DNA of 64,000 bases. Source: Candidatus Nomurabacteria bacterium RIFCSPHIGHO2_12_FULL_42_19 (GTDB taxonomy: Bacteria; Patescibacteriota; Minisyncoccia; Phycocordibacterales; UBA9973). Shown here in pieces: positions 7,009-53,207 of this stretch. The position numbers and the translations under genes were made by a program. The notes beneath the pieces were generated by a model, which saw nothing but the letters and a program-made list of their open reading frames with translations, was not told the origin of the DNA and did not search any database. Positions within the stretch are counted from its first letter, which is position 1. Each line of letters opens with the position of its first letter. The stretch lies in NCBI GenBank assembly GCA_001786955.1, contig MFUM01000008.1, positions 11,062-75,061 on the forward strand, given 5' to 3'.

Positions 7009-7023
7009 TCGCGCTATAATGAC

Positions 7024-7737: not shown

Positions 7738-7764
7738 AATTATTATTAAGCGTCGCGCTTTAAT

Positions 7765-8506: not shown

Positions 8507-8703
8507 TTTGCCAGCTTATAGATGTTTTACTTTAATTATGCTTGTGCTATAATTAAGGAATAAGAGAAGGATAAATAAGCTTGCTTGTTTATCCCGAACG
8601 AAAGAGTTGATTATATTGTATTTAGTTATATAATTAAGGGACATTATTAGTTATTATAAGGTCGTTTTATTATTAACATTATTATTAGAATATTAGGAAT
8701 CAT

Positions 8704-9096: not shown

Positions 9097-9121
9097 TTCA
9101 TAAAGAAAAAGAAGACAAAAT

Positions 9122-9504: not shown

Positions 9505-10035
9505 CTATTCGTGCTTCAATGGTGTTGCGTGATAGTTCTCTTTGGTGTTAAAAATTATTCTTGTCAATATAACCAGCAACAAAATGAGTATTGCAAACAT
9601 GATCCACTGGATTAATCCGGAAGGCAGGAAACCGCTTATCCCGTAAAAAGCATTGGCTGCGAGACCGCTGTAAGTGTTGGAATTTTTTGTAGATGCAGAT
9701 GATGCTACGGTTTTTACGGCGCTGGCTGTTTTTACTTTTGCTGTTTTTGGAACAGTTGCCGAGTTTTCCGCATTCGGATTTACGCTATTTGAATAGACTA
9801 TCGGTGTAGGCGCGGGAGCCGGAGGGGGAGTATAAATCGGCGGCTGATAAGGAGATTGATTGGCATTATAATAATAACCATCATTATAATAACCATGAAC
9901 CGGTACAAAAACTTCATTAGCAGAAGCCTTGTTAAAAGGCATAAAAATCAAGACAAACGCCAAAATAGCCAATATTTTCAAGCCATAATTTATTGATTTG
10001 TTGTTTATTTTCTTCATATGCAAGTAGTATATCAC
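9505..10035 (-). CDS. Secreted/cell-surface protein, Tyr/Pro-rich low-complexity region, C-terminal TM anchor; hypothetical
   Basis: Signal peptide after the internal Met (MKKINNKS...ASA, likely start ~10017), a 'YYNDGYYYN...PPIYTPPPAPAPTP' region, and a C-terminal hydrophobic helix. Confidence 0.4.
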   Translation of the reverse strand: MIYYLHMKKINNKSINYGLKILAILAFVLIFMPFNKASANEVFVPVHGYYNDGYYYNANQSPYQPPIYTPPPAPAPTPIVYSNSVNPNAENSATVPKTAKVKTASAVKTVASSASTKNSNTYSGLAANAFYGISGFLPSGLIQWIMFAILILLLVILTRIIFNTKENYHATPLKHE

Positions 10036-31937: not shown

Positions 31938-31983
31938 AATTAGTGGCTAGGGGCTAGGGACTAGAAAAATCTAGAACCTAAAA

Positions 31984-32005
31984 CCTAGAAACTAGAACCT
32001 AATTT
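31984..32005 (+). promoter_or_regulatory. 22-nt CTAG-rich leader motif cctagaaactagaacctaattt directly before rpsK (preceded by more degenerate CTAG units from 31944)
   Basis: Identical 22-mer recurs at 34134-34155 directly before rplQ. Confidence 0.4.
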
Positions 32006-32009
32006 ATTT

Positions 32010-34124: not shown

Positions 34125-34133
34125 TTACTAGCA

Positions 34134-34155
34134 CCTAGAAACTAGAACCTAATTT
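34134..34155 (+). promoter_or_regulatory. Second copy of the 22-nt CTAG-rich leader motif, abutting the rplQ start codon
   Basis: Identical to 31984-32005. Confidence 0.4.
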
Positions 34156-34509
34156 ATGAGACACCACAACAATACAAGAAAATTCGGTAGGGGTAAAACA
34201 CAAAGGCATGCATTGCTTAATTCTTTGGCGCTTAATTTGATTGTGCGTGAAAAAATAAAAACAACCGAACCGAAAGCCAAAGAGTTGAGACCTTTTATGG
34301 AAAAACTTGTGACTCGAGCCAAGAAAGGCGATTTGGCGACCCGCAGGTCGGTTATTTCCAAACTTTCTAACCGCAGCAAAGAAGTGAAAAAGCTTTTTGA
34401 AGTTATTGCGCCCAAATACGCGGATAAAAAAGGAGGATATACGAGAGTTTTAAAATTAGGAGCCAGAAAATCGGACGGCGCCAAGATGGCGGTTATAGAA
34501 TTTGTATAA
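34156..34509 (+). CDS. rplQ: 50S ribosomal protein L17
   Basis: 'MRHHNNTRKFGRGKTQRHALLNSLA...TTEPKAKELR'. Confidence 0.9.
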   Translation: MRHHNNTRKFGRGKTQRHALLNSLALNLIVREKIKTTEPKAKELRPFMEKLVTRAKKGDLATRRSVISKLSNRSKEVKKLFEVIAPKYADKKGGYTRVLKLGARKSDGAKMAVIEFV

Positions 34510-35396: not shown

Positions 35397-35505
35397 CGCT
35401 TGCTCGGCCGGAGCTTTATTGTGAGTAGTAGCGAACAAAAGCGAGGCGGGGGCTGCGACCGAGTCTGAGCGACGGCGAGGACGAGAGTTGTGGTCTAAGA
35501 GATAA

Positions 35506-35538
35506 TAAAAAAATCCCTCTTCCGAGAGGGATTTTTTT
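35506..35538. terminator. Second hairpin terminator (aaaaaaatccctct-tccg-agagggattttttt) before grpE
   Basis: Perfect stem with A/T runs on both sides. Confidence 0.6.
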
Positions 35539-35555
35539 ATGCTAATATATCACTT

Positions 35556-36164
35556 ATGAGCGATGAAGAAGATAAAAAACCGGAAAATATCGAGCCAAAA
35601 GAAGAATCAAAGCAAGACGACTCCGAAGTTTTAGAGTTTGAATTCAACGAGGACGGGGAAGAAGACCTCAAAAAAACTTTAAAAAAATTGAGGGCCGACT
35701 TGAAGCAGGCCAAAAAGGAAAAGGAAGAGTATCTGACCGGCTGGCAGAAAGAGCGGGCGGATTTTATCAACTACAAGAAGCAGGAAGACGACCGAAGGAC
35801 CGTTTTTTCCGAAGCCATACGGGAGCGGATTCTGACTCGTTTTCTTTCGGTGATTGACAGTTTTAATATGGCTTTTGCCAGCAAGGAAGCCTGGGATAAA
35901 ATTGACGAAACATGGCGCAAGGGGGTGGAACATATTTACGCGCAAATGAATGGAATCTTTGAAGAATACGGAGTGAAACCTGTGGGGGAAGCCGGGGAAA
36001 ATTTTGACCCGAATATTCACCAGTCCATAGATGTAGTAGAGACAGATAATAAAGATTTAGAGCACAAAGTCGCAACTGTAATCCAAAAAGGATACAAATT
36101 AGGTGAACGCGTAATTCGTCCGGCGAGGGTAAATATTTATGAGTTTAAGGAAAGTGAGCAATAA
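35556..36164 (+). CDS. grpE: Nucleotide exchange factor GrpE
   Basis: Acidic N-terminus, coiled-coil, and 'ERADFINYKKQ' motif typical of GrpE; normally followed directly by dnaK. Confidence 0.85.
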   Translation: MSDEEDKKPENIEPKEESKQDDSEVLEFEFNEDGEEDLKKTLKKLRADLKQAKKEKEEYLTGWQKERADFINYKKQEDDRRTVFSEAIRERILTRFLSVIDSFNMAFASKEAWDKIDETWRKGVEHIYAQMNGIFEEYGVKPVGEAGENFDPNIHQSIDVVETDNKDLEHKVATVIQKGYKLGERVIRPARVNIYEFKESEQ

Positions 36165-36193
36165 TCTATTCTATAATTCTATAGAATATTAGA
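36165..36193. promoter_or_regulatory. Near-palindromic 29-bp element tctattctataattctatagaatattaga abutting the start codon of Cys-rich paralog 1
   Basis: Identical copy at 47813-47841; inverted copy at 39676-39708. Contains TATAAT/TAGAAT -10-like hexamers around the dyad core ttctatagaa. Confidence 0.5.
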
Positions 36194-37849
36194 ATGAAAA
36201 CAGAAGCAAAAATCTGTGTTGATTGTAAAAAAGAATTCGAAATAAATTCGGGTGATTTGAATTTATACGAAAAAGTCGATATTGAATTGCCGACACTCTG
36301 TTTTTTTTGCCGAATAAAACTGCATTTATCTTTCTGGATGTTTGGAAAATTTCGTAAAGGTAAATCAGACCTCTCGGGGAAAAGTCTGATTACGGTTTTA
36401 CCGGAGATAAACAGGTATCCTATTTATACGCTTCACGAATGGCATAGTGATAAATGGGATGCTATGAATTTCGGGATAGATTATGATTCAAGCAGACCTT
36501 TTTTTGAGCAATTAAAAGAATTACAGGAAAAAGTTCCTCATCCGCATCAAAATGGCATAAAAAATACCGGATGCGATTGGTGCGATGATGTTTGGAATTC
36601 TAAAAATTGCTACCTTTCTCGTTCAATGGAAGAATGTGAAGATTTATACTATTCATATCGAAATGTTAAGGTGAAGAATTCTATAGATATGACCATCTGC
36701 TTTAACACAGAAAAATCTTATGATTCCGGTGATTGTCATAATTCATTCAGACTCTTTTATTCCAAGCATTCTCGTGATTGCATAGATTCACTTTTTTTAT
36801 ATGATTGCCGAAATTGCCAGAATTGTTTTATGTGCTGGAATTTACGCAATAAGTCATATTACATAGAGAATATTCAATACACAAAAGAAGCATACGAAGA
36901 AAAATTAAAATCATTTCAACTCGGTTCATATAAATTTATTCAATCTCTTAAAAAAAATTTTGAAGAAATAATCAAGAAAGAAGCAATTCATAGGGGAAAC
37001 TTCAACTTAAGAACATATAATTCAGACGGAGACTACTTATTGGATGTTAAAAACTGCCATAACTGTAATACCATTAGTGATTCGGAAGATTGTTGTAATT
37101 GCATTCGCGGGTTACATCAAAAATCCGACATTGATTCCGATGGTTGCTGGTATTCCGAAATGATAGGAAATTGTAGTTGTTGTATAGGGGGATATGCTCT
37201 TAAGTATTCTACTTGGTCCTCTTCGCGATATTCAGAGTATTTGGATTTGTGTATTGAGTGTGAATATTGCTTCGGCTGTATTGGATTAAAGAAAAAAAAG
37301 TATTGCATTTTAAATAAGCAATATAATAAAGAAGAATATGAGATTTTGAAAAATAAAATTATTTCTGACATGAGAAAAAGAGGGGAATACGGTCAATTTC
37401 TGCCCTATTCTATGAGCGCTGGTCCCTTCAACTTTTCTACCAGTTTTTTATATTTTCCGGAAACCAAAAAGGAAGATATTTTTAAACTCGGCGGTTATTG
37501 GGAAGATATAAGCGAAAATCAAATTGAAGGTATGCCGACGAACGAACTGCCCGACGATATAAAAGATGTTCCGGACACCATAATAAAAGAGGCTCTGATA
37601 TGCCCCGAAACAGGTTGGCGTTTCAATATTGCCCAAAATGAGCTTTCTTTCTATAAGGAAAACAATATTCCACTTCCGCGATATCATTTTGATGTACGAA
37701 CCAAAAATGCCCTGAAATACCTGACTGTCCTGGAATCTTACCCTTACAAATGTTTTTACTGCAAAAAGGATATAATGGCCTATTATCCGCCGGAATGGGG
37801 CTACCAAAAAATAGCCTGCGAGGAATGTTATAAACAGAATATCGCATAA
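36194..37849 (+). CDS. Cys-rich paralog 1 (551 aa; most divergent; N-terminal CxxC-x17-CxxC zinc-ribbon-like motif, Cys-rich central modules)
   Basis: Shares 'CRNCQNCFMCWNLRNKSYYIENIQYTKEAY' and 'CFGCIGLKKKKYCILNKQYNKEEYE...GEYGQFLP' blocks with the other five paralogs. No signal peptide. Confidence 0.6.
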   Translation: MKTEAKICVDCKKEFEINSGDLNLYEKVDIELPTLCFFCRIKLHLSFWMFGKFRKGKSDLSGKSLITVLPEINRYPIYTLHEWHSDKWDAMNFGIDYDSSRPFFEQLKELQEKVPHPHQNGIKNTGCDWCDDVWNSKNCYLSRSMEECEDLYYSYRNVKVKNSIDMTICFNTEKSYDSGDCHNSFRLFYSKHSRDCIDSLFLYDCRNCQNCFMCWNLRNKSYYIENIQYTKEAYEEKLKSFQLGSYKFIQSLKKNFEEIIKKEAIHRGNFNLRTYNSDGDYLLDVKNCHNCNTISDSEDCCNCIRGLHQKSDIDSDGCWYSEMIGNCSCCIGGYALKYSTWSSSRYSEYLDLCIECEYCFGCIGLKKKKYCILNKQYNKEEYEILKNKIISDMRKRGEYGQFLPYSMSAGPFNFSTSFLYFPETKKEDIFKLGGYWEDISENQIEGMPTNELPDDIKDVPDTIIKEALICPETGWRFNIAQNELSFYKENNIPLPRYHFDVRTKNALKYLTVLESYPYKCFYCKKDIMAYYPPEWGYQKIACEECYKQNIA

Positions 37850-37963
37850 CAGATTTTCACGGTCGCGATAAAGTGTTATATTTAAAAATGAATCAAGAAA
37901 CTAAACAATGCCAAAACCCCGAACCAGAGCGAAGCTCGGTACGGGGCAGGTTGTAAAAAAGAT

Positions 37964-39667
37964 ATGGAGTATAAATCACAAAATGTGGTGTGTCAGAACT
38001 GTAAAGGTAATTTTATAATAGAGCCGGAGGATTTTTATTTCTATGAAAAAATAAAAGTCCCTCCGCCAACCTGGTGCCCGGAATGCCGGCAGCTTCGCCG
38101 CTATGCCTGGCGTAATGAACGCACCCTATACAGAAGGAACTGCGATTTATGCGGCAAGAACACGGTAACGATTTATTCTCCAAATAAGCCGCACAAGATG
38201 TATTGCCAGCCCTGTTGGTGGGGCGACGGCTGGGATCCGGCTTCCTATGGCCGTGATTTTGATTTTTCTCGGCCTTTTTTCGATCAATTTGCCGAATTGC
38301 AATTGGATGTGCCCCGCATGGCGCTCCTGAGTAAAAACAGCGTAAATTCAGAATACACCAACCATTCAGGGGACAATAAGAATGTTTACCTTTCTTTTGC
38401 AGCTTGGTCAGCCGAAGACGTTCTTTATAGCACCTGGGTTATGAAGTCCCGTGATTGTATGGACTGCAGTTTTGTTTACGATAAAGGCGAACGGCTGTAT
38501 GAAATAATCGATTCCCGAACCTCTTACGAGTGCCAGTACGGGCTATTTTTAAAAGATTGTTCCTCTTGTTACTATTGCTATGATTGCCGCGGGTGCAACC
38601 ATTGTTTTATGTCTTCTAACTTGCGCAATAAAAGTTATGTTTTTAAAAACAAACAATACACTCGGGAGGAATATTTAAAAAAAATAAAAGAATACGAATT
38701 ATCTTCTTTCTCAGCGCGAGAAAAACTGCAAAAAGAATTCCAGGACTTGATTGAAAAGGGTTCCATTCACCGCTACATAATCAGCGAACGTAATGTGAAT
38801 TCTGTCGGTTCTCTGATTTTTGACTGCAAAAATGTGACTCAATCTTTTGAAGTGAACAATGGGGAAGACAGCAAGTATATCTACGGCGCTCTGGATTTGA
38901 AAGATTGTATGGATATATATCATGTTGGATGGGCCACTACCGCGCTTGATTACGAATGCCATGGCTGCACTCGGATTTATGATTGTAAATTCTGCCATCT
39001 TTGTTATGACGACAACGGCGTGTCGTATTCCGACAGTTGCCAAAACAGCCAGAACCTTTTTGGTTGCGTGAGTATAAAAAAGGGCGAATATATGATTTTC
39101 AATAAAAAATACTCAAAAACCAATTATCTAGCGCTTAAGGAAAAAATAATAGAGCATATGAGAAAAATAGGAGAGTATGGGGGATTTTTCCCGCCGGCAA
39201 TTTCCCCAGTCGGCTACAACGAAACACAGGGGGCACTCTATGCTCCAATGACAAAAGAAGAAGTTTTGGCCAAGGGCTGGAAATGGGAGGAAAACATTCT
39301 GGGCACTTTCGGCAAAGAAACTATATTTCTCTCCGACATACCGGACAAAATTGAGGATGTTCCCGATAGTTTCTTGAAAGAAGTATTTTCCTGTATGGAA
39401 TGTTCCAAGAATTACAATATTACTCAAAATGAACTTCTTTTTTTGAAAAAAGAAAAAATTCCTTTACCCAGAAAGTGCCCGAATTGTCGTTACAAAAGAA
39501 GATTTAACCTCCGGCCTTTGCGAAAATTATGGCACCGGAGTTGTATGTGCGGTAAATCGGAGCACGGGCATTCGGCTAAATGCCCGAACGAATTTAAGAC
39601 CCCCTATGCCCCCGACCGGCCGGAAAAAGTGTATTGTGAGAGCTGCTACAACAAAGAAGTGTATTAA
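37964..39667 (+). CDS. Cys-rich paralog 2 (567 aa); double zinc-ribbon-like N-terminus and C-terminus
   Basis: N-term 'CQNCKGNFIIEPEDFYFYEKIKVPPPTWCPECR...CDLCGK...YCQPC'. C-term 'CMECSKNYNITQNELLFLKKEKIPLPRKCPNCR...CMCGKSEHGH..KCPNEFKTPYAPDRPEKVYCESCY'. Confidence 0.6.
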   Translation: MEYKSQNVVCQNCKGNFIIEPEDFYFYEKIKVPPPTWCPECRQLRRYAWRNERTLYRRNCDLCGKNTVTIYSPNKPHKMYCQPCWWGDGWDPASYGRDFDFSRPFFDQFAELQLDVPRMALLSKNSVNSEYTNHSGDNKNVYLSFAAWSAEDVLYSTWVMKSRDCMDCSFVYDKGERLYEIIDSRTSYECQYGLFLKDCSSCYYCYDCRGCNHCFMSSNLRNKSYVFKNKQYTREEYLKKIKEYELSSFSAREKLQKEFQDLIEKGSIHRYIISERNVNSVGSLIFDCKNVTQSFEVNNGEDSKYIYGALDLKDCMDIYHVGWATTALDYECHGCTRIYDCKFCHLCYDDNGVSYSDSCQNSQNLFGCVSIKKGEYMIFNKKYSKTNYLALKEKIIEHMRKIGEYGGFFPPAISPVGYNETQGALYAPMTKEEVLAKGWKWEENILGTFGKETIFLSDIPDKIEDVPDSFLKEVFSCMECSKNYNITQNELLFLKKEKIPLPRKCPNCRYKRRFNLRPLRKLWHRSCMCGKSEHGHSAKCPNEFKTPYAPDRPEKVYCESCYNKEVY

Positions 39668-39675
39668 ATATAAAG

Positions 39676-39708
39676 TATTCTAATATTCTATAGAATTATA
39701 GAATAGAT
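39676..39708. promoter_or_regulatory. Inverted copy of the near-palindromic element, upstream of Cys-rich paralog 3
   Basis: tattctaatattctatagaattatagaatagat is the reverse complement of the 36165-36193 element. Confidence 0.5.
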
Positions 39709-39712
39709 AATT

Positions 39713-41455
39713 ATGAAAAGCGAGACAAAAAACTGCCAAAATTGCAAAAAGGATTTCACGATAGAACCGGATGATTTTGGGTTTTATGAGAAAATAAAAG
39801 TTCCGCCGCCGACTTTTTGTCCGGAATGCCGGCTTATTCGTCGGCTTGTCTGGCGCAACGAGAGAATATTATATCGCCGGATTTGTAATCTTTGCAATAA
39901 GAATATCATTTCCATGTATCATGAATCTGTGCCTTTTCCTGTGTATTGTCGGGAGTGCTGGTATGGGGACGGCTGGGACCCCACCTCTTACGGACGGGAA
40001 TACGATATGGCAAGGCCGTTTTTTGAGCAATATAAAGAGTTTTCCAATACTGTCCCGAGGCTGATGTTTTGGCAAAGAAATGCGATTAACTCGGATTATT
40101 CAAATCATGTAGCAGAATCAAGGAATGCTTACATGTCTGCATCTGTGATAAAAGAGTCGGAGAATGTTTTTTATTCAAAAAATATAGATGATTCAAGGGA
40201 TATAGTAGACTGTTTAAATATAATAAACGGATCGGAGCAACTATATGAGACCGTAGAAGCGCAGGGGAATTACAACTCGCAATATCTTCTCCTTTGCCGG
40301 AACACCCTGGATTCGTATTATTCGTTTGATTGCATAAATTGCAGTAATTGTTTTCTTTCTTATAACCTGCGCAATAAAAAATTCTGTATTAGAAATAAAC
40401 AATATTCGCAAAAAGAATATTTTCAAGAACTGGAAAAATTTAACTTAAAAAGCAGAACTTCGCGCGAGGTTTTACTTAAAGAATTTGAAGAGGTTAAAAA
40501 ACAAGCCATCTTCCGCTTTGGCAATATAACCAAGTGTGTGAATGTTACGGGTAACAATATGCTGAATGTGAAAAACGGCAAAAATTGTTTTGAAATATAT
40601 AATATAGAAAATGCAAGTTATTGTTATAGAATTCTTGATTCTAAAGATTGTGTGGATACGAGTTTTAGTATGAAATCAGAGTTACTCTATGAATATAGCT
40701 CGGGTGGTATGAATGATTACAATGTAAAATTTTCCTATTCCGCCATGAATTTTGTCCGAAATGCGGATTATGCCGAGTCCTGTATGAATTGCAGCAATAT
40801 TTTCGGCTGTATCTCACTTCGCGATGCGGAAAATGCCATTTTAAACAAAGTTTATTCCAAAAAAGAATTTGAAACACTAAGGTCAGAAATCATCAAGCAA
40901 ATGAGCGCCTTGCCTTTCATAGATAAAGGCGGAAGAAAATACGAGTACGGGGAATTTTTTCCCATAGAAATCAGTCCATGGGCATATAATGAAACATCAG
41001 CACAAGAAATTGCTCCCCTAAGCAAAGAATCAGCCCAAAAAAGCGGCTATTCGTGGCGCGACGCAGATGAAAAAAATTTCAATATTACAATGTCGGGAAA
41101 TATGATACCGGACAATATAGACGAAGTAGGGGAGAGTATTCTGAAAGAAGTTTTGGGCTGCGCGCATGAAGGGAAATGCAACCATCAATGTAATATCGCT
41201 TTTCGTATAACCGATTACGAGTTTAAGTTTTACAAAAAACACGACATACCTTTGCCGATTTTTTGCCCGAATTGCCGTTATTATGAGAGATTTAAAGTGA
41301 TGCCAGGGCTAAAATTATATAAAAGAAATTGCATGTGCGACAAAGCCGGTCACGGGCACAATGAAAAATGCCCGAATGAATTTGAGACAAGTTATTCCCC
41401 CGACCGGCCGGAAAAAGTGTATTGCGAAAGTTGTTACAACAAAGAAGTTTACTGA
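39713..41455 (+). CDS. Cys-rich paralog 3 (580 aa)
   Basis: Same architecture as paralog 2; C-terminus '...FCPNCRYYERF...CMCDKAGHGHNEKCPNEFETSYSPDRPEKVYCESCYNKEVY' is nearly identical to the paralog 2 C-terminus. Confidence 0.6.
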   Translation: MKSETKNCQNCKKDFTIEPDDFGFYEKIKVPPPTFCPECRLIRRLVWRNERILYRRICNLCNKNIISMYHESVPFPVYCRECWYGDGWDPTSYGREYDMARPFFEQYKEFSNTVPRLMFWQRNAINSDYSNHVAESRNAYMSASVIKESENVFYSKNIDDSRDIVDCLNIINGSEQLYETVEAQGNYNSQYLLLCRNTLDSYYSFDCINCSNCFLSYNLRNKKFCIRNKQYSQKEYFQELEKFNLKSRTSREVLLKEFEEVKKQAIFRFGNITKCVNVTGNNMLNVKNGKNCFEIYNIENASYCYRILDSKDCVDTSFSMKSELLYEYSSGGMNDYNVKFSYSAMNFVRNADYAESCMNCSNIFGCISLRDAENAILNKVYSKKEFETLRSEIIKQMSALPFIDKGGRKYEYGEFFPIEISPWAYNETSAQEIAPLSKESAQKSGYSWRDADEKNFNITMSGNMIPDNIDEVGESILKEVLGCAHEGKCNHQCNIAFRITDYEFKFYKKHDIPLPIFCPNCRYYERFKVMPGLKLYKRNCMCDKAGHGHNEKCPNEFETSYSPDRPEKVYCESCYNKEVY

Positions 41456-41558
41456 AAACTCTTGAAAACAACTTTTTGCAGGGGTTTTGAGCTTGACGGA
41501 GCGAAAACTTCAGAATTTTTTAAGCTTCAAAAAATTCGTACCGGAAAAAAGTTTGTTT

Positions 41559-42071
41559 TCAGGGTTTTTTCCCAAAAGCTTCAAATAAAATTTTCTTTGT
41601 TTCCTCGTCAATATTTTCGCTGACAATAATCATCATTTCGGTTGTCAGGCCCAAATCTTTTTTTATATTTGTAAATAAATGCTCAAAAGGGTAAGGAGAA
41701 ATCCAGGCGGAATTTTTCAGGCAGACGAAGCCGGCTTTTTTCAAAAGGTAGCGTAGGGATTCGCGTTCACTTTTTCTGCTCTCCGGCAAGTCGAGCAAAA
41801 TAATTCTCCAGAATCCGTCCCAACTTACCGGCACCGGCATCTCCTCATTCACCAACGTAATGCTGTGCAACTTCGCCTTACCTTTTTGGGTAATGCGTAA
41901 AAATGGCTGGTTGTCGGAGTTCTGTATCTCCGCATATCCGCCTTCTACCAGGTTTTTTACTGATCGGGTAAGGGCATAGGATGTTTTAAGCTCTGCAGTC
42001 GGTATAGCCGGTTTTTGGCCCAAAACCTCCAATATTTTCTTTGTATATCCTGATTTACTTGACATACCCAT
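41559..42071 (-). CDS. PaaX-family-like transcriptional regulator (N-terminal winged HTH, PaaX_C-like C-terminal domain)
   Basis: 'WDGFWRIILLDLPESRKSERESLRYLLKKAGFVCLKNSAWISPYP' matches the PaaX C-domain pattern as I recall it. Confidence 0.45.
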   Translation of the reverse strand: MGMSSKSGYTKKILEVLGQKPAIPTAELKTSYALTRSVKNLVEGGYAEIQNSDNQPFLRITQKGKAKLHSITLVNEEMPVPVSWDGFWRIILLDLPESRKSERESLRYLLKKAGFVCLKNSAWISPYPFEHLFTNIKKDLGLTTEMMIIVSENIDEETKKILFEAFGKKP

Positions 42072-42122
42072 ATATTATAATATATATTACCTTTTGACAA
42101 GCATTCCGCGACCACGAAATAC

Positions 42123-42151
42123 TTGCTAAAAATAAATGATTGGTATATAAT
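42123..42151 (+). promoter_or_regulatory. Sigma-70-like promoter for dnaK (TTGCTA-17 nt-TATAAT)
   Basis: Near-consensus hexamers with 17-nt spacer ~125 nt upstream of dnaK. No CIRCE (TTAGCACTC-N9-GAGTGCTAA) was found. Confidence 0.35.
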
Positions 42152-42274
42152 GAGTTTACAAAATTATTTATAAGCATTGCTCGAAGAAAATCAAACTTTC
42201 CTGCGTTAGGTCATAAGGATAATGCTCTTGGAAAGTTTATTTTCTTCTCGCAATAATTAATTATTAAAAAATAT

Positions 42275-44179
42275 ATGTCAAAAATAATAGGTATAGATTT
42301 GGGGACAACAAATTCGGCAGTTGCTGTGATTGAAGGAGGTGCGCCGAAAATTATTGAAAACGTTGAAGGCAACCGCACGACGCCTTCCGTTGTCGCGACC
42401 GCAAAAAATGGCGACCGCATCGTCGGTCTTCTTGCCAAGAGGCAGGCGGTGACAAATCCGGAAAACACGATAGCTGAAATCAAGCGTCTTATGGGGCACC
42501 GCTTTGATGACGTGGAAGTGCAGAAAGATAAGGAAACGGCCGCATTTAAAATTGAAGCGGGAGACGGCGGCGGAACGAAAGTAAAAATGTCGGACAAGTT
42601 CTACCGGCCAGAAGAAATCTCCGCGATGATTTTACAGAAAATAAAAACCGATGTTGAAGCAAAACTGGGAGAAAAAATTACCGAAGCGGTTATTACCGTG
42701 CCGGCCTATTTCAATGATGCGCAGAGAAAAGCGACCAAAGATGCCGGGGCCATCGCCGGACTGGATGTAAAACGCATCATCAACGAGCCGACGGCTGCCG
42801 CGTTGGCTTACGGATTTAATAAAAAGAAAAATGAAAAGATAGTCGTCTACGACTTCGGCGGAGGAACTTTTGATGTATCGGTGCTGGAAATCGGCGATGA
42901 TGTCATTGAAGTCAAGTCCACCGACGGCGACAGCCATATGGGCGGGGGCGACATAGACAGAAAGATAATAGCTTACATTGCCGAAGAATATAAAAAAGAT
43001 TCCGGTATTGATGTAATCAAAGACCCTCTGGCGCACCAGAGATTGAAGGAAGCGGCCGAAAAAGCCAAACACGAGCTTTCAACTACGATTGAAACCGAAA
43101 TCAACATACCCTTTATTACCTCAGATAGCTCCGGGCCAAAGCATTTATTGATGAAAATGACCCGCGCGACTTTGGAGTCTCTCGCCAAAGACTTGATTGA
43201 CCGTTCCATTGAAATTACCAAGAGAGCCTTGGCTGCTTCGCCGTTCAAGATGAATGAAATTAATGAAATTATTATGGTCGGCGGGCAGACCCGCATGCCG
43301 ATGATTGTGGAAGCCGTCAAGAATCTTTTCGGCAAAGACCCGAATATGTCCATCAATCCGGACGAAGTCGTCGCCTTGGGCGCCGCGGTCCAAGCCGGAG
43401 TGCTTCAGGGCGACGTGCGCGATGTTTTACTGCTTGATGTCATACCGCTTTCTTTGGGGATAGAGACATTGGGAGGCGTGGCCACAAAATTAATTGAAAG
43501 AAACACAACTATTCCTTCAAGCAAATCCCAGACATTCTCAACTGCCGCCGATAACCAAACTTCTGTGGAAATACACATTGTCCAGGGAGAGCGCCCGATG
43601 GCCTCCGACAACAAATCTCTCGGGCGATTTATCCTGGACGGAATTCCACCGGCGCCTCGGGGCATGCCGCAGATTGAAGTTGCTTTTGATGTGGATGCGA
43701 ATGGAATTCTGAATGTGGCGGCCAAAGATAAGGCTTCCGGCAAAAGCCAGTCCATTAGGATAGAAGCAAGCTCCGGACTGAAAGAAGAAGATATAAAGAA
43801 AATGCAGGCGGATGCGGAACTGCATGCCGAGGAAGACAAGAAGAAAAAAGAAAATGCCGAAGTGAAAAATACCGCGGAGATGATTATTTATACTGCCGAG
43901 AAAGCGCTAAAAGATAATGAAGAGAAAATTCCTGCAGATGTAAAAGATGGCGTAAATGCCAAGATAACCGCCTTGCGGGGAGTGAAAGATGGTGCCGACG
44001 GAGAGGCCATTAAAAAAGCCACCGAAGAGCTTTCCGCCGAAATGTCCAAAATTGGCGAAGCGATGGCCAAGGCCGGCGCAACTCCTCAATCTCCCAAAAC
44101 TCCCGAAGAGCAAAATCCCGAAGTTCACGATGCAGAATTCAAGGAGAAAAAAGAAGGGGAGGAAGGCGAAGTAAAATAA
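42275..44179 (+). CDS. dnaK: Chaperone DnaK (Hsp70)
   Basis: '[14 protein letters not shown]', '[10 protein letters not shown]', 'VGGQTRMP'; substrate-binding domain; C-terminal acidic tail. Confidence 0.95.
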
Positions 44180-44976
44180 TGAAATTACCCCTAAATAATT
44201 TAAATTATCCAGTAAAAATTTCAATTGGAAATAGCTCTGGCTCTGGTTTTTTGATTAGTTATGAGAATAATATATACCTTGTTACAGCTAAACATGTTGT
44301 TTATCAGCAAGACAACATAACAAAAAATTATGTATTATTTGGCGATAAATTAAAAATTACTTGCTATACCTTCCTAGAGCAGTTATCACCACATATACCA
44401 AGAGTATATGAAATTGAAGTTACAAAAATTTTATTAGATAATAATTTAAAGTCTCATCCTACAGCAGATATTGTAGTTATAAAATTAGGGTCCAAAGACG
44501 ACAAATCAGTACTTAGTTTTGTGCCTGGTATTTCAGTAATACAAAATGCCGAAGGGGCACTTGTCCATTATTTAATGGATGGGTCAAGAAAATTTGATGA
44601 TTTAGAAATAACAAATGATGTATTCGTCTTAGGGTATCCAGTTTCCTTGAGTACTTCGGAAATGAAACAAATAAATTATGATGCACCCCTTGTACGTAAG
44701 GGAATAATAGCAGGTAAGAATTATGAAAATAAAACTATTGTGTTAGATTGCCCAGTATATGGTGGAAATAGTGGAGGCATGGTACTTGAAATGAATTCAG
44801 AAAAATCAAAAATACATTTGATTGGAGTAGTAGTACAATTTATTCCGTTTGTGGATCAATGGAGGAATGTTAGATTTCCAGAACTTTACAATTCGAATTT
44901 CCAAAATTCTGGCTATTCGATTGCCCTGCCAGTAGATTATATATACGATTTGATTAAAGAAATTGGAACAACTTAA
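44179..44976 (+). CDS. Trypsin-like serine protease (chymotrypsin fold), apparently intact triad
   Basis: His in 'LVTAKHVV', Asp in 'ADIVVIKL', Ser in 'GGNSGGMV'. Start overlaps the dnaK stop (ATGA). Confidence 0.55.
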   Translation: MKLPLNNLNYPVKISIGNSSGSGFLISYENNIYLVTAKHVVYQQDNITKNYVLFGDKLKITCYTFLEQLSPHIPRVYEIEVTKILLDNNLKSHPTADIVVIKLGSKDDKSVLSFVPGISVIQNAEGALVHYLMDGSRKFDDLEITNDVFVLGYPVSLSTSEMKQINYDAPLVRKGIIAGKNYENKTIVLDCPVYGGNSGGMVLEMNSEKSKIHLIGVVVQFIPFVDQWRNVRFPELYNSNFQNSGYSIALPVDYIYDLIKEIGTT

Positions 44977-44991
44977 ATAGGGCTTTTTGGT

Positions 44992-45666
44992 TTGGCTAAT
45001 TTTTGCTATAATTTAAAAATGAAATACTCTGCGGTGATTTTTGACTGGGACGGGACACTAGGAATGACGCTTCATATATGGCTGGAAGCATATAAAAGTG
45101 AACTAAAAAATCTAGGTATAGAACTATCAGACCAAACTATTATTGAGGATTTTTTCTATGAGCACAAAAAGACAGCAACAAAATATCCAAATATTGATTT
45201 CGATCCTTATATAGAAAAAGTCCGCAAATATATGATTAGTCATGCACCTTTAATGAAACTTTATTCCGGAGTGAATGAGACATTAGAGAAATTACAAACG
45301 AGAGGTATTGTTCTCGCTTTGGTTTCTTCAAGCCCCAGAAAATTACTTGAAGAAGTGCTTGAACTGACCGGGCTGTCGAAATTTTTCTCAGCCATTTCCG
45401 GGTTTGACGATATTATGAAACACAAACCTGACCCAGAACCTTTTTTGTATATTATGGAAATTGCAAAACTTGATCCGAAAACCACAATTATTTTAGGAGA
45501 TTCACCACACGACATCATTGCCGCAAAAGCAGCAGGCATAGATTCTTGTCTTTTCTTGCCTCCGGAAAATAAAATATTTTATGATTTCGATCAGCTTAAA
45601 AAGACAAACCCAAATTATTCCATTGAAACTCTGGAAGAATTTTTGGAGCTTATTTTAAATAGTTAA
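44992..45666 (+). CDS. HAD-superfamily hydrolase (phosphatase, subfamily IA-like)
   Basis: Motif I 'VIFDWDGTL', motif II 'LVSSS', motifs III/IV 'K...GDSPHDIIAAKAAG'. Confidence 0.7.
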   Translation: MANFCYNLKMKYSAVIFDWDGTLGMTLHIWLEAYKSELKNLGIELSDQTIIEDFFYEHKKTATKYPNIDFDPYIEKVRKYMISHAPLMKLYSGVNETLEKLQTRGIVLALVSSSPRKLLEEVLELTGLSKFFSAISGFDDIMKHKPDPEPFLYIMEIAKLDPKTTIILGDSPHDIIAAKAAGIDSCLFLPPENKIFYDFDQLKKTNPNYSIETLEEFLELILNS

Positions 45667-45707
45667 AAATACTGGCAAAAAAGACCATTTTATTGTAAAA
45701 TATTAAC

Positions 45708-47810
45708 ATGGATTTGCCGGAAATACCCATAAATAAAGATGTTACTTATCTCGGTCTAACGACTTATCGGGACAAAAACACACTTTTTGGCATTAAGCGC
45801 AAAGACCGGCGTCAGCATGTTTATCTGCTCGGAAAATCCGGGACCGGTAAATCTGTCCTAATGTTCAACATGATTATCCAGAATATCCAGAACGGCGAAG
45901 GGGTTTGCTTGGTTGACCCGCACGGAGAGAATGTTGAAGCGGTTTTATCCGCCATTCCGCCTCATCGCATGAAAGATGTCATTTATTTTAATCCGGCCGA
46001 TGCGGACTATCATATCGGTTTTAACGTTTTGGAGCTGATTGACCCGCAATACAAGCATCTGGTGGCTTCCGGCTTGATGGGTATTTTTACCAAAATCTGG
46101 GCCAATGCTTGGAGTGCCCGGATGGAATATATTTTAAATAATACGATTTTGGCCCTGCTGGATACGCCGGGCACGACGCTTCTTGGTATTCCCCGAATGC
46201 TGGTGGATAAAGATTACCGTCAGAAAATAATTTCCAATTTGAAAGACCCCGTCATCAAGGCTTTTTGGGTTCACGAATACGAAGCTTGGCAGGATAAATT
46301 CAGAAATGAAGCCATTGCGCCGATTCAGAACAAAGTTGGGCAGTTTCTTTCCACTTCTATCATCCGGAATGTTGTCGGCCAGTCCAAAAGCACCATCAAT
46401 GTTTTTGACATGATGAATGAGGGAAAGATTTTCCTGGTAAATGTTTCCAAAGGGCGTATCGGCGAAGACAACTCCGCCTTGCTGGGCGGCATGATTATTA
46501 CCAAAATCCAGCTGGCAGCCATGGAACGTGTGCGCATTCCCGAAGAACATCGCAGGGACTTTTACCTTTACGTGGATGAATTCCAGAATTTCGTGACGGA
46601 TGCTTTCGCGGGCATTTTATCCGAAGCCAGAAAATACAGACTGAATCTGACCGTGGCTCATCAATATACTGCCCAACTTGTTTCGGATAAAAGCACGGCG
46701 GTGCGCGATGCCGTTTTCGGCAACGTCGGGACGATGATAGTTTTTCGTGTTGGTGCGGACGATGCCGATTTTCTGGAAAAAGAATTCGAACCGGAATTTA
46801 TTCCTCAGGACATAGTTAATTTACCGAACTATAAAGTTTATATGAAATTAATGATAGACGGCGTAACTTCCAGGCCGTTTTCCGCCAAGACTTTGCCACA
46901 GATGGTAAAGTCCGGTGATAAAAAAATAGAAGAAGAGGTTATCCAGTCTTCGCGCGCCCTTTATTGCCGTCCGAAAGAGGTTGTGGAGCGGGAAATCAAT
47001 GACTGGAGCGGAATGTCTCTCGGCAATGACAATGAAACTGCCCCGGGAAGCCTGGAAAAATTTCCGGCTGTTTGTTCATTTTGCAAGAAAGAAACAACCG
47101 TGCCTTTCAAGCCGGAGCCGGGCAGGACAGTTTATTGCAAAGATTGCATAGCCAGAATAAAATCCGGGGAGATAAAAGTGGAAAAGAGCGGAGAACATCA
47201 AATCAAGCATGATGAAACAAAATTTTTTAAGCCATTAGCCGACATAGGGATAGAGTTTGAACAAAAAGACAGGGGTAAAATAGAAGAAGGGGAGAGATAT
47301 CCGGAGCGGGGAGATCACCACTTGGATAAACCTAAATCTGGAGTATTCGGAGCGATTAAAAAAGTTTTTACCTCGCCGCCGAAAGTTTCTAAACCTGCCC
47401 ACGCAGGCGGGGATAATTCGGCCTTGAGAGAAGTTTTAAAAAAGATAGATGAACCTATTTCACTCGATACGCTAAAAAATAAAACTAAAGAAGTCAGTAA
47501 AATTTCTATGCCCTCAAAAGACAGAGCCGCCAGCCCGGAAGATATGAATAAATTAAAAGATTTGATTGCGGAAAAAATTCCTGCCCGCAATGCTTCTAGC
47601 ATAGCTGATGCAGGCGGGGAACCCAAAGAAGAAAACACCACCCCGGCTAAAGCCACCCCTCCTCCGAAAGGAGGGGAAGAAATTCCCCAAAAACCTACAC
47701 CCGTCTCTACTCAAGGCTCCGGCGAGGCAAAGCCAGTTCAAGAGCCTCCACTGACAAAAGGAAACATTCAAGAAATCCCCGAAGATGTCTTAAGAAAAAT
47801 TTTAGAATAG
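45708..47810 (+). CDS. VirD4/TraD/TrwB-like (type IV coupling protein-like) P-loop ATPase, cytoplasmic, with C-terminal CxxC-x13-CxxC zinc ribbon and acidic/Pro-rich tail
   Basis: Walker A 'LLGKSGTGKS', Walker B 'FYLYVDEFQNF', coupling-protein-like 'LTVAHQYTAQL' motif. No TM helices. C-terminus 'CSFCKKETTVPFKPEPGRTVYCKDC'. Confidence 0.55.
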   Translation: MDLPEIPINKDVTYLGLTTYRDKNTLFGIKRKDRRQHVYLLGKSGTGKSVLMFNMIIQNIQNGEGVCLVDPHGENVEAVLSAIPPHRMKDVIYFNPADADYHIGFNVLELIDPQYKHLVASGLMGIFTKIWANAWSARMEYILNNTILALLDTPGTTLLGIPRMLVDKDYRQKIISNLKDPVIKAFWVHEYEAWQDKFRNEAIAPIQNKVGQFLSTSIIRNVVGQSKSTINVFDMMNEGKIFLVNVSKGRIGEDNSALLGGMIITKIQLAAMERVRIPEEHRRDFYLYVDEFQNFVTDAFAGILSEARKYRLNLTVAHQYTAQLVSDKSTAVRDAVFGNVGTMIVFRVGADDADFLEKEFEPEFIPQDIVNLPNYKVYMKLMIDGVTSRPFSAKTLPQMVKSGDKKIEEEVIQSSRALYCRPKEVVEREINDWSGMSLGNDNETAPGSLEKFPAVCSFCKKETTVPFKPEPGRTVYCKDCIARIKSGEIKVEKSGEHQIKHDETKFFKPLADIGIEFEQKDRGKIEEGERYPERGDHHLDKPKSGVFGAIKKVFTSPPKVSKPAHAGGDNSALREVLKKIDEPISLDTLKNKTKEVSKISMPSKDRAASPEDMNKLKDLIAEKIPARNASSIADAGGEPKEENTTPAKATPPPKGGEEIPQKPTPVSTQGSGEAKPVQEPPLTKGNIQEIPEDVLRKILE

Positions 47811-47812
47811 AG

Positions 47813-47841
47813 TCTATTCTATAATTCTATAGAATATTAGA
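47813..47841. promoter_or_regulatory. Near-palindromic 29-bp element, second direct copy, abutting the start of Cys-rich paralog 4
   Basis: Identical to 36165-36193, including the next 12 nt of coding sequence (ATGAAAACAGAA). Confidence 0.5.
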
Positions 47842-49602
47842 ATGAAAACAGAAACAAGAAATTGTCAAAACTGTAAAAAGGACTTCACGATAGAACCCGA
47901 GGATTTTAATTTCTACGAGAAAATCAAAGTTCCTCCGCCGACCTTTTGTCATTTGTGTCGGGCACAGAGGAGATTGGCCTTTAGAAATGAGAGAAAACTT
48001 TTTAAAGTAAAAGATGCTTTTACTGGAGAAAGTATTTTTTCCACTTTTCCCACAGAAAGTGGCAGAAAGATAATTAAGAGAGAAATCTGGATGGGAGACA
48101 CTTGGGATGGCATGGAATACGGTCGGGAGTATGATTTTTCAAAACCTTTTCTACAGCAGTTGCGCGAACTTATCAACTCTTTGCCGATATACAATTTTAA
48201 CGTTATACGCATGGTAAATAGTCCATATTCTTTCAATGCTACGGACCTCAAAAATAGTTATCTTGTCTGCAACTCAAGTTATTCAGAGGATTGCATGTAC
48301 GGGAACGCCATTGATAATTGTAAAGATTGTGTAGATAACTCTCATATTCATGAGTCCGAGCGGTGTTATGAATCCTTTTGGCTCGCCAAATGTTATCAAT
48401 GCTATTTTACCCAGAGGGCAGAGGAGTCCAGAAATCTATGGTTTTGTCGTGGGTGTGTAGGCTGCCAAGATTGTTTCGGGTGTGCTAATTTAGTCAATGC
48501 TTCGTATTGCATTTTTAATAAAAAATATAACCCAGATGAATATCGTAATATTATAAAAGGAATGGAGTTAGATACATACGAAGGAATAATGGTGGCCAGA
48601 GAAAAGGCGCGCGTATTTTGGGATACCCAGCCCGTAAAAAGTATTCAAGGAATAAAGAATGTGAACTCTTCTGGTTCCTATATTACTCACTGCAGGAATG
48701 TTAAGGATAGTTATTTAGTTCGGGAGAGTGAAAACATCCGCTACTGCCAATATCTGCAAGTACCCTCCAGTAAAGAGAATTACGATGTGACAGTGTGGGG
48801 AAACAATACCGAGCTTTGTTACGAGACGGTAGAGTGCGGAGATGATTCGTATAATAATAAATTTACTTGGAATTGTTGGCCTGCTTGTAGAAATCTTGAA
48901 TACTCTACGCATCTTTTCAGTTCTTCGGATTGTTTTGGATGTTCAGGACTAAAGAAAAAACAATATTGCATTTTAAACAAGCAGTATACGAAAGAGGACT
49001 ATAAAGCAATGGTGGAGAAGATTAAAAAACACATGGATGAAATGCCTTATGTCGATGTTCGTGGCCTAATCTATAAATACGGAGAATTTTTACCAATAGA
49101 ATTTTGTCCTTTCGGTTATAACAATACTTTAGCAGGCCAGCATTTTACCTTATCTAAAGAAGAAGCGCTAAAGAATAATTATGGATGGGTTGACGGAGAA
49201 CGAGGAGAATACACTATTACTAAAAAATCTTCGGAACTCCCGGAGTCTATTACCAGCACTTCAGATGATATTTTGAAAGAAGTTTTCGAATGTCAATCAT
49301 GCAAAAATGCTTACCGCGTTCTCGAAAATGAATTGATTTTTTTGCGCAAGGAAAATTTGTCGGCTCCACGTCTCTGTAGTGAATGTAGGCATGAGCGTAG
49401 AATCAACGACAGGCTGAAATTATTTTTATACGAAAGATCCTGTATGTGCGCTGGTATTACCGACCAGACCAATACATATAAAAATACCATTTCTCATAAT
49501 CACAAAGATTTTCCGTGTGGAGAGGTATTCAAAACCGGCTATGCTCCAGACCGCCCGGAAATTGTTTACTGCGAGAAATGTTACCAACAAGAAGTGTATT
49601 GA
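47842..49602 (+). CDS. Cys-rich paralog 4 (586 aa)
   Basis: N-term 'CQNCKKDFTIEPEDFNFYEKIKVPPPTFCHLCR'; central 'CVGCQDCFGCANLVNASYCIFNKKYNPDEY' and 'CFGCSGLKKKQYCILNKQYTKEDY...YKYGEFLP'; C-term '...PDRPEIVYCEKCYQQEVY'. Confidence 0.6.
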   Translation: MKTETRNCQNCKKDFTIEPEDFNFYEKIKVPPPTFCHLCRAQRRLAFRNERKLFKVKDAFTGESIFSTFPTESGRKIIKREIWMGDTWDGMEYGREYDFSKPFLQQLRELINSLPIYNFNVIRMVNSPYSFNATDLKNSYLVCNSSYSEDCMYGNAIDNCKDCVDNSHIHESERCYESFWLAKCYQCYFTQRAEESRNLWFCRGCVGCQDCFGCANLVNASYCIFNKKYNPDEYRNIIKGMELDTYEGIMVAREKARVFWDTQPVKSIQGIKNVNSSGSYITHCRNVKDSYLVRESENIRYCQYLQVPSSKENYDVTVWGNNTELCYETVECGDDSYNNKFTWNCWPACRNLEYSTHLFSSSDCFGCSGLKKKQYCILNKQYTKEDYKAMVEKIKKHMDEMPYVDVRGLIYKYGEFLPIEFCPFGYNNTLAGQHFTLSKEEALKNNYGWVDGERGEYTITKKSSELPESITSTSDDILKEVFECQSCKNAYRVLENELIFLRKENLSAPRLCSECRHERRINDRLKLFLYERSCMCAGITDQTNTYKNTISHNHKDFPCGEVFKTGYAPDRPEIVYCEKCYQQEVY

Positions 49603-49639
49603 AAACTAAGATTTCTGCTATCGCAGAGTTTTAAGTAAA

Positions 49640-51391: not shown

Positions 51392-51434
51392 TATCTTATT
51401 CTAGTGTTTTGCAAAAGACTGAAATAATAAAAAC

Positions 51435-53207
51435 ATGAAAAGCGAAACTAAAAATTGTCAAAATTGCAAAAAAGATTTCATGATAGAATCGGAGGATTTT
51501 AATTTTTATGAGAAAATTAAAGTTCCTCCGCCGACTTTTTGCCCTGAATGTAGGCTAATTCGCAGAATGACTTGGCGCAACGAGCGATCACTTTTTAAAA
51601 GAGTTTGCGCAAAAACGGGAGAACAAATAATAACCATGTTTCATCCCGAAATTAATATGGTGGTGTATGACCACGACGTGTGGTGGAGCGATAAATGGGA
51701 GCCGACGGATTACGGAAAAGATTACGATTTTTCTCGACCTTTTTTTGAACAGTTTAGGGAACTATTCCAAAAAGTACCGCTTGCAAATTTAGGGAATTCA
51801 AACTGTAAAGGAAGTCCGTACGGTAATCACAATGCGGATTGCAAATATTGCTATTTGACATACGCTTCTTTTAATAATGAACGAACACATTATTCTTATG
51901 GAGTAGTTGAAACGAAAGATTGTGTAGATATGTATAAATGCGGTAAATCTGAATTAAGTTACAACGACACCCTTTGTGCCGGCTTATATAAAACCCATTT
52001 TTCTTACGATTCCGATGAGTCGATAAATTCTTTTTTCTTAAAGTATTGCAAAAATCTGCAGGATTGCATTGGCTGTGTTAATTTAAGGAACAAGAGTCAT
52101 TGCATTTTAAATGTGCAATATACGAAGGAAGAATATAAAAAGAAAAAAAAAGAATTGGACTTCGGCAGCTATCGAATTCTCTCTGAATTTAAAGATTCTT
52201 ACGACAAATTTGTTCTTAATTTTCCAAACAGATACGCAAGTATTATAAAATCCACCGAAGCAACTGGCGACGAAATTATGAATTCCAAAAATATAAAAAA
52301 TTCTTTTGATATTTTTGGAGAGGCTGAAGATTCAAAATATTTATTTCACTGCGTAAGTATTAAAGACAGTTATGACATGTATGGCGCCGGATTGGCGTCT
52401 CTTATGTATGAGGGGATAGATGCTGGCATAGACGCGTCAAAAGAACTGTTCTGCGCGATTGCCCATAGTTGTTTGGATATTTATTATTCTTATATGTGTT
52501 TTAGCTCAAAAAATCTTTTTGGCTGTATTGGGTTGCGAGGTAAGCAATATTGTATTTTAAATAAGCAATATTCCAAAGAGGAATACTTTAATTTATTACC
52601 TAAAATTATTGAACACATGAACACCATGCCTTTTAAAGATAAAAAAGGTCTAATTTACAAATATGGAGAATTTTTTCCATCCGAATTGTCGCCTTTTGCT
52701 TATAATGAAACGATGGCTCAGGAGTATTTTACTAAAACAAAAGAAGAAATAATTCAAAAGGGGCATGTTTACCGAACACCAACTGAAAAAGATTATCAAG
52801 TTACCATATTGAGTAAAGATTTGCCGGATCACATCAGAGATGTTCCTGAAACCATACTTGAGGAAATTATCGCTTGTCCTAACAATGGACAAGAATCAAC
52901 TCAATGCACTAAGGCTTATCGCATCACTAAACCGGAATTAGATTTTTTAAAAAATAATAATATTACACTACCAAGATATTGTCCGAATTGTAGACACTAC
53001 GGAAGGCTGAAGCAAAGAAATCCGTTTCATCTTTGGCGAGGCAAATGCCAGTGTGCTGGAGATTATTCCAAAAACAAAAAATATAAAAACACAATGGAGC
53101 ATATCCACGGAAACAAACCATGTCTGAATGAGTTTGAAACCCCATACGCTCCCGAGCGGTCGGAAATAATTTACTGCGAAAAGTGTTATCAGCAGGAAGT
53201 ATATTAG
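51435..53207 (+). CDS. Cys-rich paralog 6 (590 aa)
   Basis: Same architecture; N-term 'CQNCKKDFMIESEDFNFYEKIKVPPPTFCPECRLIRR'; C-term '...ETPYAPERSEIIYCEKCYQQEVY'. Confidence 0.6.
   Translation: MKSETKNCQNCKKDFMIESEDFNFYEKIKVPPPTFCPECRLIRRMTWRNERSLFKRVCAKTGEQIITMFHPEINMVVYDHDVWWSDKWEPTDYGKDYDFSRPFFEQFRELFQKVPLANLGNSNCKGSPYGNHNADCKYCYLTYASFNNERTHYSYGVVETKDCVDMYKCGKSELSYNDTLCAGLYKTHFSYDSDESINSFFLKYCKNLQDCIGCVNLRNKSHCILNVQYTKEEYKKKKKELDFGSYRILSEFKDSYDKFVLNFPNRYASIIKSTEATGDEIMNSKNIKNSFDIFGEAEDSKYLFHCVSIKDSYDMYGAGLASLMYEGIDAGIDASKELFCAIAHSCLDIYYSYMCFSSKNLFGCIGLRGKQYCILNKQYSKEEYFNLLPKIIEHMNTMPFKDKKGLIYKYGEFFPSELSPFAYNETMAQEYFTKTKEEIIQKGHVYRTPTEKDYQVTILSKDLPDHIRDVPETILEEIIACPNNGQESTQCTKAYRITKPELDFLKNNNITLPRYCPNCRHYGRLKQRNPFHLWRGKCQCAGDYSKNKKYKNTMEHIHGNKPCLNEFETPYAPERSEIIYCEKCYQQEVY

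Follow-up and report, generated by a model that had tools for sequence, protein, structure and literature searches.

A dyad at putative leaderless promoters, widespread in Patescibacteria, and the small ArsR-family regulator predicted to bind it

Introduction

Repressors of the SmtB/ArsR family recognize inverted repeats of the 12-2-12 type that coincide with start sites or overlap them, and that are found either upstream of the genes under control or inside these genes. Cys-rich metallothionein genes are among the targets, and the regulator is sometimes encoded remotely (PMC8790569). In this work we analyzed a stretch of 64,000 nucleotides (nt) from Candidatus Nomurabacteria bacterium RIFCSPHIGHO2_12_FULL_42_19 (contig MFUM01000008.1, positions 11,062 to 75,061 of the forward strand; hereafter the window), in which a near-palindromic 29-mer, TCTATTCTATAATTCTATAGAATATTAGA, stands at the heads of three genes for Cys-rich paralogous proteins. 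Comparison with other genomes suggested that this element, which is widespread in Patescibacteria, is probably the operator of a small ArsR-family winged-helix regulator of ∼90 amino acids (aa), fused to a leaderless promoter.

The predicted pair resembles SmtB-smtA, ZiaR-ziaA and AzuR-nmtA (PMC8790569) in combining a small dimeric HTH_5 winged-helix protein with an imperfect inverted repeat of ∼26–28 base pairs (bp) at the start site. As in those systems, the sites lie upstream of or within the targets, the regulator can be distant, and the targets can be Cys-rich. Several features are nevertheless different. The dyad is a 13-2-13 repeat of four TAGAAT-like hexamers, and the predicted operator abuts or overlaps the ATG of a leaderless gene. 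The regulator has only ∼90 aa, and the form that goes with the 29-mer (type A) is without the canonical α3N and α5 metal sites; in most lineages, a copy of the operator lies in the last 28 nt of the regulator gene itself. Instead of efflux pumps or metallothioneins, the predicted targets comprise proteins of ∼580 aa and various housekeeping genes.

HlyU and PagR (PDB 3jth, 4k2e, 2zkz) share with the predicted regulator a minimal ArsR fold without metal ligands and the use of AT-rich palindromic DNA, but the sequence similarity is weak (E about 2e-5). HlyU is moreover an activator/antirepressor that works from upstream sites, whereas the site described here covers the −10 box and the start. A literature search found no HlyU/PagR-type protein reported with this motif, nor any account of the motif itself or of the present regulator subfamily.

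Leaderless promoters with a −10 box ∼7 nt before the start codon occur in Actinobacteria, Deinococcus-Thermus and archaea. The window is similar to them in having a TANNNT box 5–9 nt before the ATG and no Shine-Dalgarno sequence (17 of 60 genes), and it differs in that the putative −10 hexamer at the 29-mer is one of four symmetric hexamers of a predicted operator. No paper linking Patescibacteria, leaderless transcripts and promoters was found in the literature search.

Results

Copies of the dyad in the window

The 29-mer was found in three exact copies in the window, at 36165–36193 (+), 47813–47841 (+) and 39679–39707 (−), where none was expected; 100 dinucleotide shuffles gave no match with 3 mismatches tolerated. 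All three copies stand at the heads of Cys-rich paralogs, which are P1, P4 and, for the inverted copy, P3, and the copies are numbered here accordingly. A previous reading of the window from its sequence only had reported the exact repeat and its inversion before the third paralog, and this was confirmed. Copies 1 and 4 are identical over 41 nt, including the first four codons ATGAAAACAGAA. Copy 1 matches the reverse complement of copy 3 over 36 nt with 97% identity (36160–36195 versus 39677–39712), so that copy 3 is truly inverted together with its flank. The copies occupied the same positions in six independent assemblies of the source organism, among them the groundwater Candidatus Nomurabacteria metagenome-assembled genome GCA_001787115.1 and the Joint Genome Institute (JGI) assemblies 3300002529 and 3300025311, which ruled out an assembly artefact as their origin. 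No further type-A copy was present in the 64-kb window at ≤7 mismatches over the 24 specified positions, and degenerate copies, looked for before P2, P5 and a pilin gene, were not found.

The core of the element is a 28-bp dyad of four hexamers, ATTCTA-TA-ATTCTA/TAGAAT-AT-TAGAAT, whose symmetry is broken by the two spacer dinucleotides only. Laid out as ATTCTANNATTCT-AT-AGAATNNTAGAAT, it forms an imperfect inverted repeat of 13-2-13 architecture, in agreement with the 12-2-12-like arrangement of ArsR/SmtB operators. The type-A element can be written as ATTCTANNATTCTATAGAATNNTAGAAT; the other site type, type D, is represented by TTTTGCAAAA. Copy 1 of this predicted operator spans 36168–36195 with a conserved flank from 36160, and its final two bases are the AT of the P1 ATG. 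Copy 4 (47816–47843) is the same, and the last hexamer overlaps the start codons of both P1 (36194) and P4 (47842) as TAGAATG. The inverted copy 3 (39677–39704) reads ATTCTA-AT-ATTCTA/TAGAAT-TA-TAGAAT and is followed by the flank AGATAATT up to 39712, which places the P3 ATG (39713) 8 nt past the outer TAGAAT. This TAGAAT-AGATAAATT-ATG arrangement was found again in many genomes. The three predicted targets, all on the plus strand, are P1 (551 aa, 36194–37849), P3 (580 aa, 39713–41455) and P4 (586 aa, 47842–49602).

Just before copy 4 (47803–47821), the upstream ATPase gene ends with RKILE and the stop codon (TTAGAATAG), which gives a fifth TAGAAT and forms a 9-1-9 palindrome, TAGAATAGA-G-TCTATTCTA. 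Because the RKILE end is kept in relatives, the extra TAGAAT and the palindrome are probably a coincidence of the coding sequence.

Distribution of the dyad

A scan for the pattern CTANNATTCTATAGAATNNTAGAAT over one genome per species returned at least 116 stretches from at least 83 genomes (counted by accession prefix), compared with ∼6 or fewer matches expected from a composition estimate. Nearly all of the matches listed were titled Patescibacteria (Nomura-, Campbell-, Wolfe-, Jorgensen-, Brenner- and Azambacteria, Paceibacterota), and the stretches contained at least 118 complete four-hexamer sites. Among the matches listed, none of the 118 full sites lay inside a long open reading frame (ORF), and a gene started within 40 nt of 54 of the 107 sites away from a contig edge. 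The distance from site to next ATG peaked at 5–10 nt (31 sites) and at −2 (17 sites). The latter class is that of the window, in which the ATG overlaps TAGAATG, and some of its 17 members are short, probably spurious ORFs. The asymmetric TA/AT spacers do not face the gene in the same direction at all orthologous sites, those of P1 and P4 in the window being opposite to those of three other loci (L043, L105 and L126); the inversion at P3 is therefore without functional meaning.

The commonest downstream neighbour was the Cys-rich family (at least 17 sites), followed by a protein of ∼90 aa. The gene of this small protein directly abuts the site in at least 13 cases (11 clustered ones plus L030 and L078), and in three loci (L077, L084 and L113) sites were observed on both sides of it.

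The ∼90-aa regulator and its co-variation with the dyad

The ∼90-aa protein was assigned to the ArsR winged-helix family by its match to Pfam HTH_5 (32 bits, cutoff 22), and its best PDB matches were HlyU, CadC and PagR. The family has at least 4,900 members. For the reciprocal test, 80 metagenomic loci encoding the regulator (L127–L206) were taken. A four-hexamer dyad was found 2–50 nt upstream of the regulator's own ATG in all 24 of the 24 closest homologues; in Nomurabacteria relatives, where the gene comes after gatB and fba, the dyad is upstream there too.

It was further observed that the regulator ORF ends, in most lineages, in a near-copy of the site, which makes up its final 28 nt including the stop codon. 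One such end, ATTCTACAATTCGTTAGAATTATAGAATAG, encodes ILQFVRIIE and the stop. In 67 of 78 loci the regulator 3′ end agreed in at least 22 of 28 positions with a site lying no more than 90 nt before its own gene, whereas the cross-locus control gave 25%. In distant lineages the upstream palindrome and the 3′ end change together, for example to TTCTTGAGAA, TTCTGCAGAA or TTTTGCAAAA. The C-terminal peptide varies with the operator (ILQFVRIIE, ILKFLRILE and ILVFCKRL; e.g. L129 and L141, both at 3244–3273), and the next gene often begins 4–13 nt past the regulator stop.

The residues at the beginning of the recognition helix vary in step with the central bases of the dyad. KN[IV]SAH goes with TTCTATAGAA, KTxSEH with TTCTYAAGAA and xNASDH with TTTTGCAAAA. 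In the loci with KN[IV]SAH, TTCTATAGA was found in 16 of 21 and the variant TTCTAACGA in the remaining 5; KTxSEH was accompanied by TTCT[CTG]AAGA in 12 of 13 loci, with one exception, and xNASDH by TTTTGCAAA in 27 of 27. A further helix, RTAS[EQ]H, pairs largely with TTCTG[CT]AGA. In the sequences compared, such co-variation of helix and site is the classic signature of a regulator and an operator evolving together. The earlier suggestion of an operator for a dimeric repressor thus gained comparative support from conservation, association with the regulator and co-variation.

Leaderless promoter context

A TATAAT-like box (at least 5 of 6 positions) ending 5–9 nt before the start codon was found at 17 of 60 window genes, against a mean of 2.5 and a maximum of 7 at random positions. 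Shine-Dalgarno-like tetramers were at background level (7 of 60 genes versus 4.8 at random positions). Since the boxes exceed the random count and the Shine-Dalgarno-like tetramers do not, leaderless expression appears to be the norm in this genome. At P1 and P4 it is the inner TAGAAT (36182–36187 on the plus strand and 47830–47835) that lies 6 nt before the ATG, and at P3 it is the outer one (39699–39704) that lies 8 nt before it; no Shine-Dalgarno-like motif is present there. Because this position matches the −10-to-ATG spacing of the genome, the TAGAAT hexamers were taken as putative −10 boxes of sigma-70-type promoters with leaderless transcripts, from which the start sites are predicted. 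The other role proposed in the sequence-only reading, a −10 promoter at a leaderless start, was in this way supported as well.

The extension of this promoter type to a pilin-like gene at 8704 was not borne out. The string that precedes this gene (8686–8699) is a lone half-site with 2 mismatches, and ∼1 such match is expected by chance. The gene is one of five T4SS_pilin (PF18895) genes at 7019–9436, and it has AGGA 5 nt before its ATG, unlike most window genes. Elsewhere in the window, a 30-nt repeat, CTA(A/G)(A/C)ACCTAGAAACTAGAACCTAATTTAT, occurs at 31978–32007 and 34128–34157, immediately 5′ of the ATGs of the S11 (32010) and L17 (34156) ribosomal protein genes.

A second site type and the Cys-rich paralog array

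A site of the second type was found before another paralog. This type-D site, also a predicted operator, spans 51398–51425 (ATTCTA-GT-GTTTTG/CAAAAG-AC-TGAAAT, with the centre GTTTTGCAAAAG) and ends 9 nt before the ATG of P6 (590 aa, 51435–53207, plus strand), its predicted target. It has the 6-2-6/6-2-6 layout of type A, and a single mismatch in 24 positions separates it from the operator and the regulator 3′-end sequence of the xNASDH lineage (TTTTGCAAAA type). One regulator locus of the xNASDH type (L167) and the source contig stem from a single JGI sample. With type A at P1, P3 and P4 and type D at P6, 4 of the 6 paralogs have a site of this family at the position of a leaderless promoter.

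The six Cys-rich paralogs (551–590 aa) show ∼30–35% pairwise identity. They belong to a family of more than 5,400 homologues, in which every named one is a 'hypothetical' protein of Parcubacteria/Paceibacterota. The order of the locus is grpE, paralogs, a PaaX_M-like gene on the minus strand, dnaK, a VirD4/TrwB-like ATPase with a treble-clef finger, paralogs, a second TrwB-like ATPase and dnaJ, and the grpE-to-dnaJ gene order is kept in distant relatives. The two other paralogs are preceded by hairpins, a G+C-rich one at P2 and, at P5, the small hairpin TTCTGCTATCGCAGAG followed by TTTT (49613–49628, between P4 and P5), which was terminator-like in a consensus scan. The arms of the P5 hairpin resemble the centre of the TTCTGCAGAA operator but with 4 additional bases, and it was assigned to no operator type. 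In one relative (L008), the P1 ortholog overlaps the end of grpE, and the other paralogs are preceded by an unrelated G+C-rich hairpin of 30 nt (GCCCCATTTACGCCATGGCGTAAATGGGGC; 3269–3298 and 9950–9979), located in the intergenic slots that the AT-rich dyad holds in the window; its second copy comes after a decayed paralog C-terminus (KCYQQEVY and stop).

Discussion

The comparative evidence suggests that the dyad is an operator-promoter module. The regulator would represent an ArsR subfamily for which we found no earlier description and would, in kind, be an autoregulated ArsR-type repressor with an inverted-repeat operator. In the proposed mechanism, the TAGAAT hexamers of the dyad would act as the −10 box, and transcription of P1, P3 and P4 would start at the ATG or 1–2 nt before it. 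The bound regulator, probably as two dimers, would lie across both the −10 box and the start site and thereby repress the gene. As the hexamers are symmetric, orientation should be irrelevant and the inversion of copy 3 tolerated. P6 would be controlled by a second regulator paralog with a different recognition helix through its TTTTGCAAAA-type site. We infer physical binding, repression rather than activation, the stoichiometry and the transcription starts from these sequence patterns. Such a module would be unusual in its leaderless fusion, in the operator copy within the regulator's own 3′ end and in the paralog-specific operator types within one paralog array.

Several observations weigh against this assignment. 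The metal ligands of ArsR/SmtB proteins are Cys residues of α3/α3N or His, Asp or Glu residues of α5. Inspection of the alignment indicated that these canonical ligands are absent from the regulator; Cys is missing from most type-A proteins and occurs once, in the wing, in two of those listed, and the α5 stretch (RGKSILQFVRIIE) contains neither His nor Asp. The regulator gene was not found in the 64-kb window by six-frame hidden Markov model and tblastn searches, nor in the 10 kb upstream of the window start. It stands beside Cys-rich paralogs in only three (L129, L139 and L141) of about 71–73 loci, and no conserved downstream partner was found among the loci examined. The abundant regulator proteins P0176 and P0140 come from other Nomurabacteria. 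The genes downstream of the dyad are mixed, with no apparent physiological logic: they include DHFR, a class-I aminoacyl-tRNA synthetase, an M24 peptidase, riboflavin synthase, PGK and Fmt, and further an Fe/Mn superoxide dismutase, a radical-SAM protein and a MurD-like ligase. The orthologous Cys-rich arrays of four relatives (L007–L010) lack the element while the genes are conserved. Finally, three properties of the sites listed also tell against an operator, because a protein site needs none of them: 12 of 107 sites are placed where two convergent genes end, 62 of 118 have spacer dinucleotides that complement each other, with many different pairs, and the palindrome extends ≥5 nt into locus-specific flanks in 31 of 118 sites (control 0.2%). 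These features might have arisen by template-switch 'perfection' of quasi-palindromes or reflect cruciform-assisted binding or an additional function as terminator.

That the dyad is instead a bare constitutive leaderless promoter, possibly propagated as a 'mobile promoter', with no dedicated regulator and only incidental symmetry, appears unlikely to us. The −10-like hexamers at the right distance from the ATG and the heterogeneity of the downstream genes would suit it, but ordinary promoters of the window are single TATAAT boxes and not 28–32-bp dyads, and it does not account for a dyad that is kept in at least 83 genomes, brackets the ArsR-like gene and co-varies in its centre with the recognition helix. 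The flank extension, the co-varying spacers and the 12 convergent sites could also be read as a hairpin of RNA or DNA between cistrons, serving as terminator, processing site or start-codon mask, and A-run and T-run flanks at some copies (L015, L038 and L052) agree with this. We regard such a hairpin as quite unlikely. The RNA folds of the window copies are weak (−6.8, −6.7 and −10.2 kcal/mol, z-scores of −1.9, −1.2 and −1.6), there is no G+C-rich stem and no U tract, the terminator scan did not flag the element, and a scan of 35500–48500 gave no Rfam match at E up to 1. In our own reading the would-be G·U mismatches fall mostly on the antisense strand of the flanking genes, which leaves a sense-RNA hairpin without support, and the co-variation with the recognition helix is left unexplained.

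The 36-nt inverted repeats at 36160 and 39677, with arms 97% identical and two paralogs between them, might alternatively flank an invertible 3.5-kb segment (P1–P2), or the dyad might be a small mobile palindrome, like a repetitive extragenic palindrome or a miniature inverted-repeat transposable element. Several identical copies per genome are possible, and some genomes have homogeneous spacers, such as Campbellbacteria PCTS01, with 6 copies that are all GT/AC. A recombination site of either kind is nonetheless very improbable, given that six independent assemblies are collinear with the window without inversion or structural variant, that neighbouring genes with Pfam hits include no recombinase or transposase domain, and that the copies number fewer than 10 per genome and keep a fixed distance to start codons. 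The least credible candidate is the one put forward in the sequence-only reading, the PaaX-like winged helix-turn-helix protein (41559–42071, minus strand; Pfam PaaX_M, 5e-20), which was attractive as the only regulator-like gene in the locus, placed between the two paralog triplets. In all relatives its gene keeps dnaK as a neighbour, also where the element and an adjacent Cys-rich paralog are missing (L009), and among the matches listed it lies within 8 kb in 3 of 116 element loci, compared with at least 13 loci in which the ArsR-like gene abuts the site. It also has a palindrome of its own. This 36-bp sequence, TTGACAAGCATTCCGCG-AC-CACGAAATACTTGCTAA (42094–42129), lies between the PaaX-like gene and dnaK, includes the −35 box of each of the two divergent promoters, has no second copy in the window and no sequence relation to the 29-mer, and is kept in four species (L007–L009 and the window). 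From its fixed place by dnaK, its own palindrome and the low co-occurrence, it is far more likely that the PaaX-like protein regulates dnaK and itself. The palindrome ends (TTAGCA...TGCTAA in L009) recall the controlling inverted repeat of chaperone expression (CIRCE), and in these bacteria the role of HrcA may be taken by the PaaX-like protein.

If the dyad is the operator of the ∼90-aa regulator, a broader picture may be drawn, though it is a doubtful one at present. Phylum-wide mini-ArsR paralogs might write the operator into their own last 28 nt, with helix, C-terminal peptide and operator evolving together, and modules might be copied from the regulator 3′ end to new genes, giving a self-seeding regulon. 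Different paralogs would then switch different members of the Cys-rich arrays associated with the type IV secretion system (type A: P1, P3 and P4; type D: P6), and the palindrome extension would be the footprint of copying.

Gene regulation in Patescibacteria (the candidate phyla radiation) is almost unexplored, because these bacteria are mostly uncultured and have few regulators. The present analysis shows promoter positions in a leaderless genome, and it corrects an annotation, in which the site would naturally but wrongly be attributed to the PaaX-like protein next to it. A large unannotated Cys-rich family, encoded in a grpE-dnaK-dnaJ/VirD4-like locus, emerges as a frequent predicted target. 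With a family of at least 4,900 members, 118 or more sites of a single type and a simple code from recognition helix to dyad centre, the regulator and its dyad would provide a concrete predicted protein-DNA pair for these organisms.

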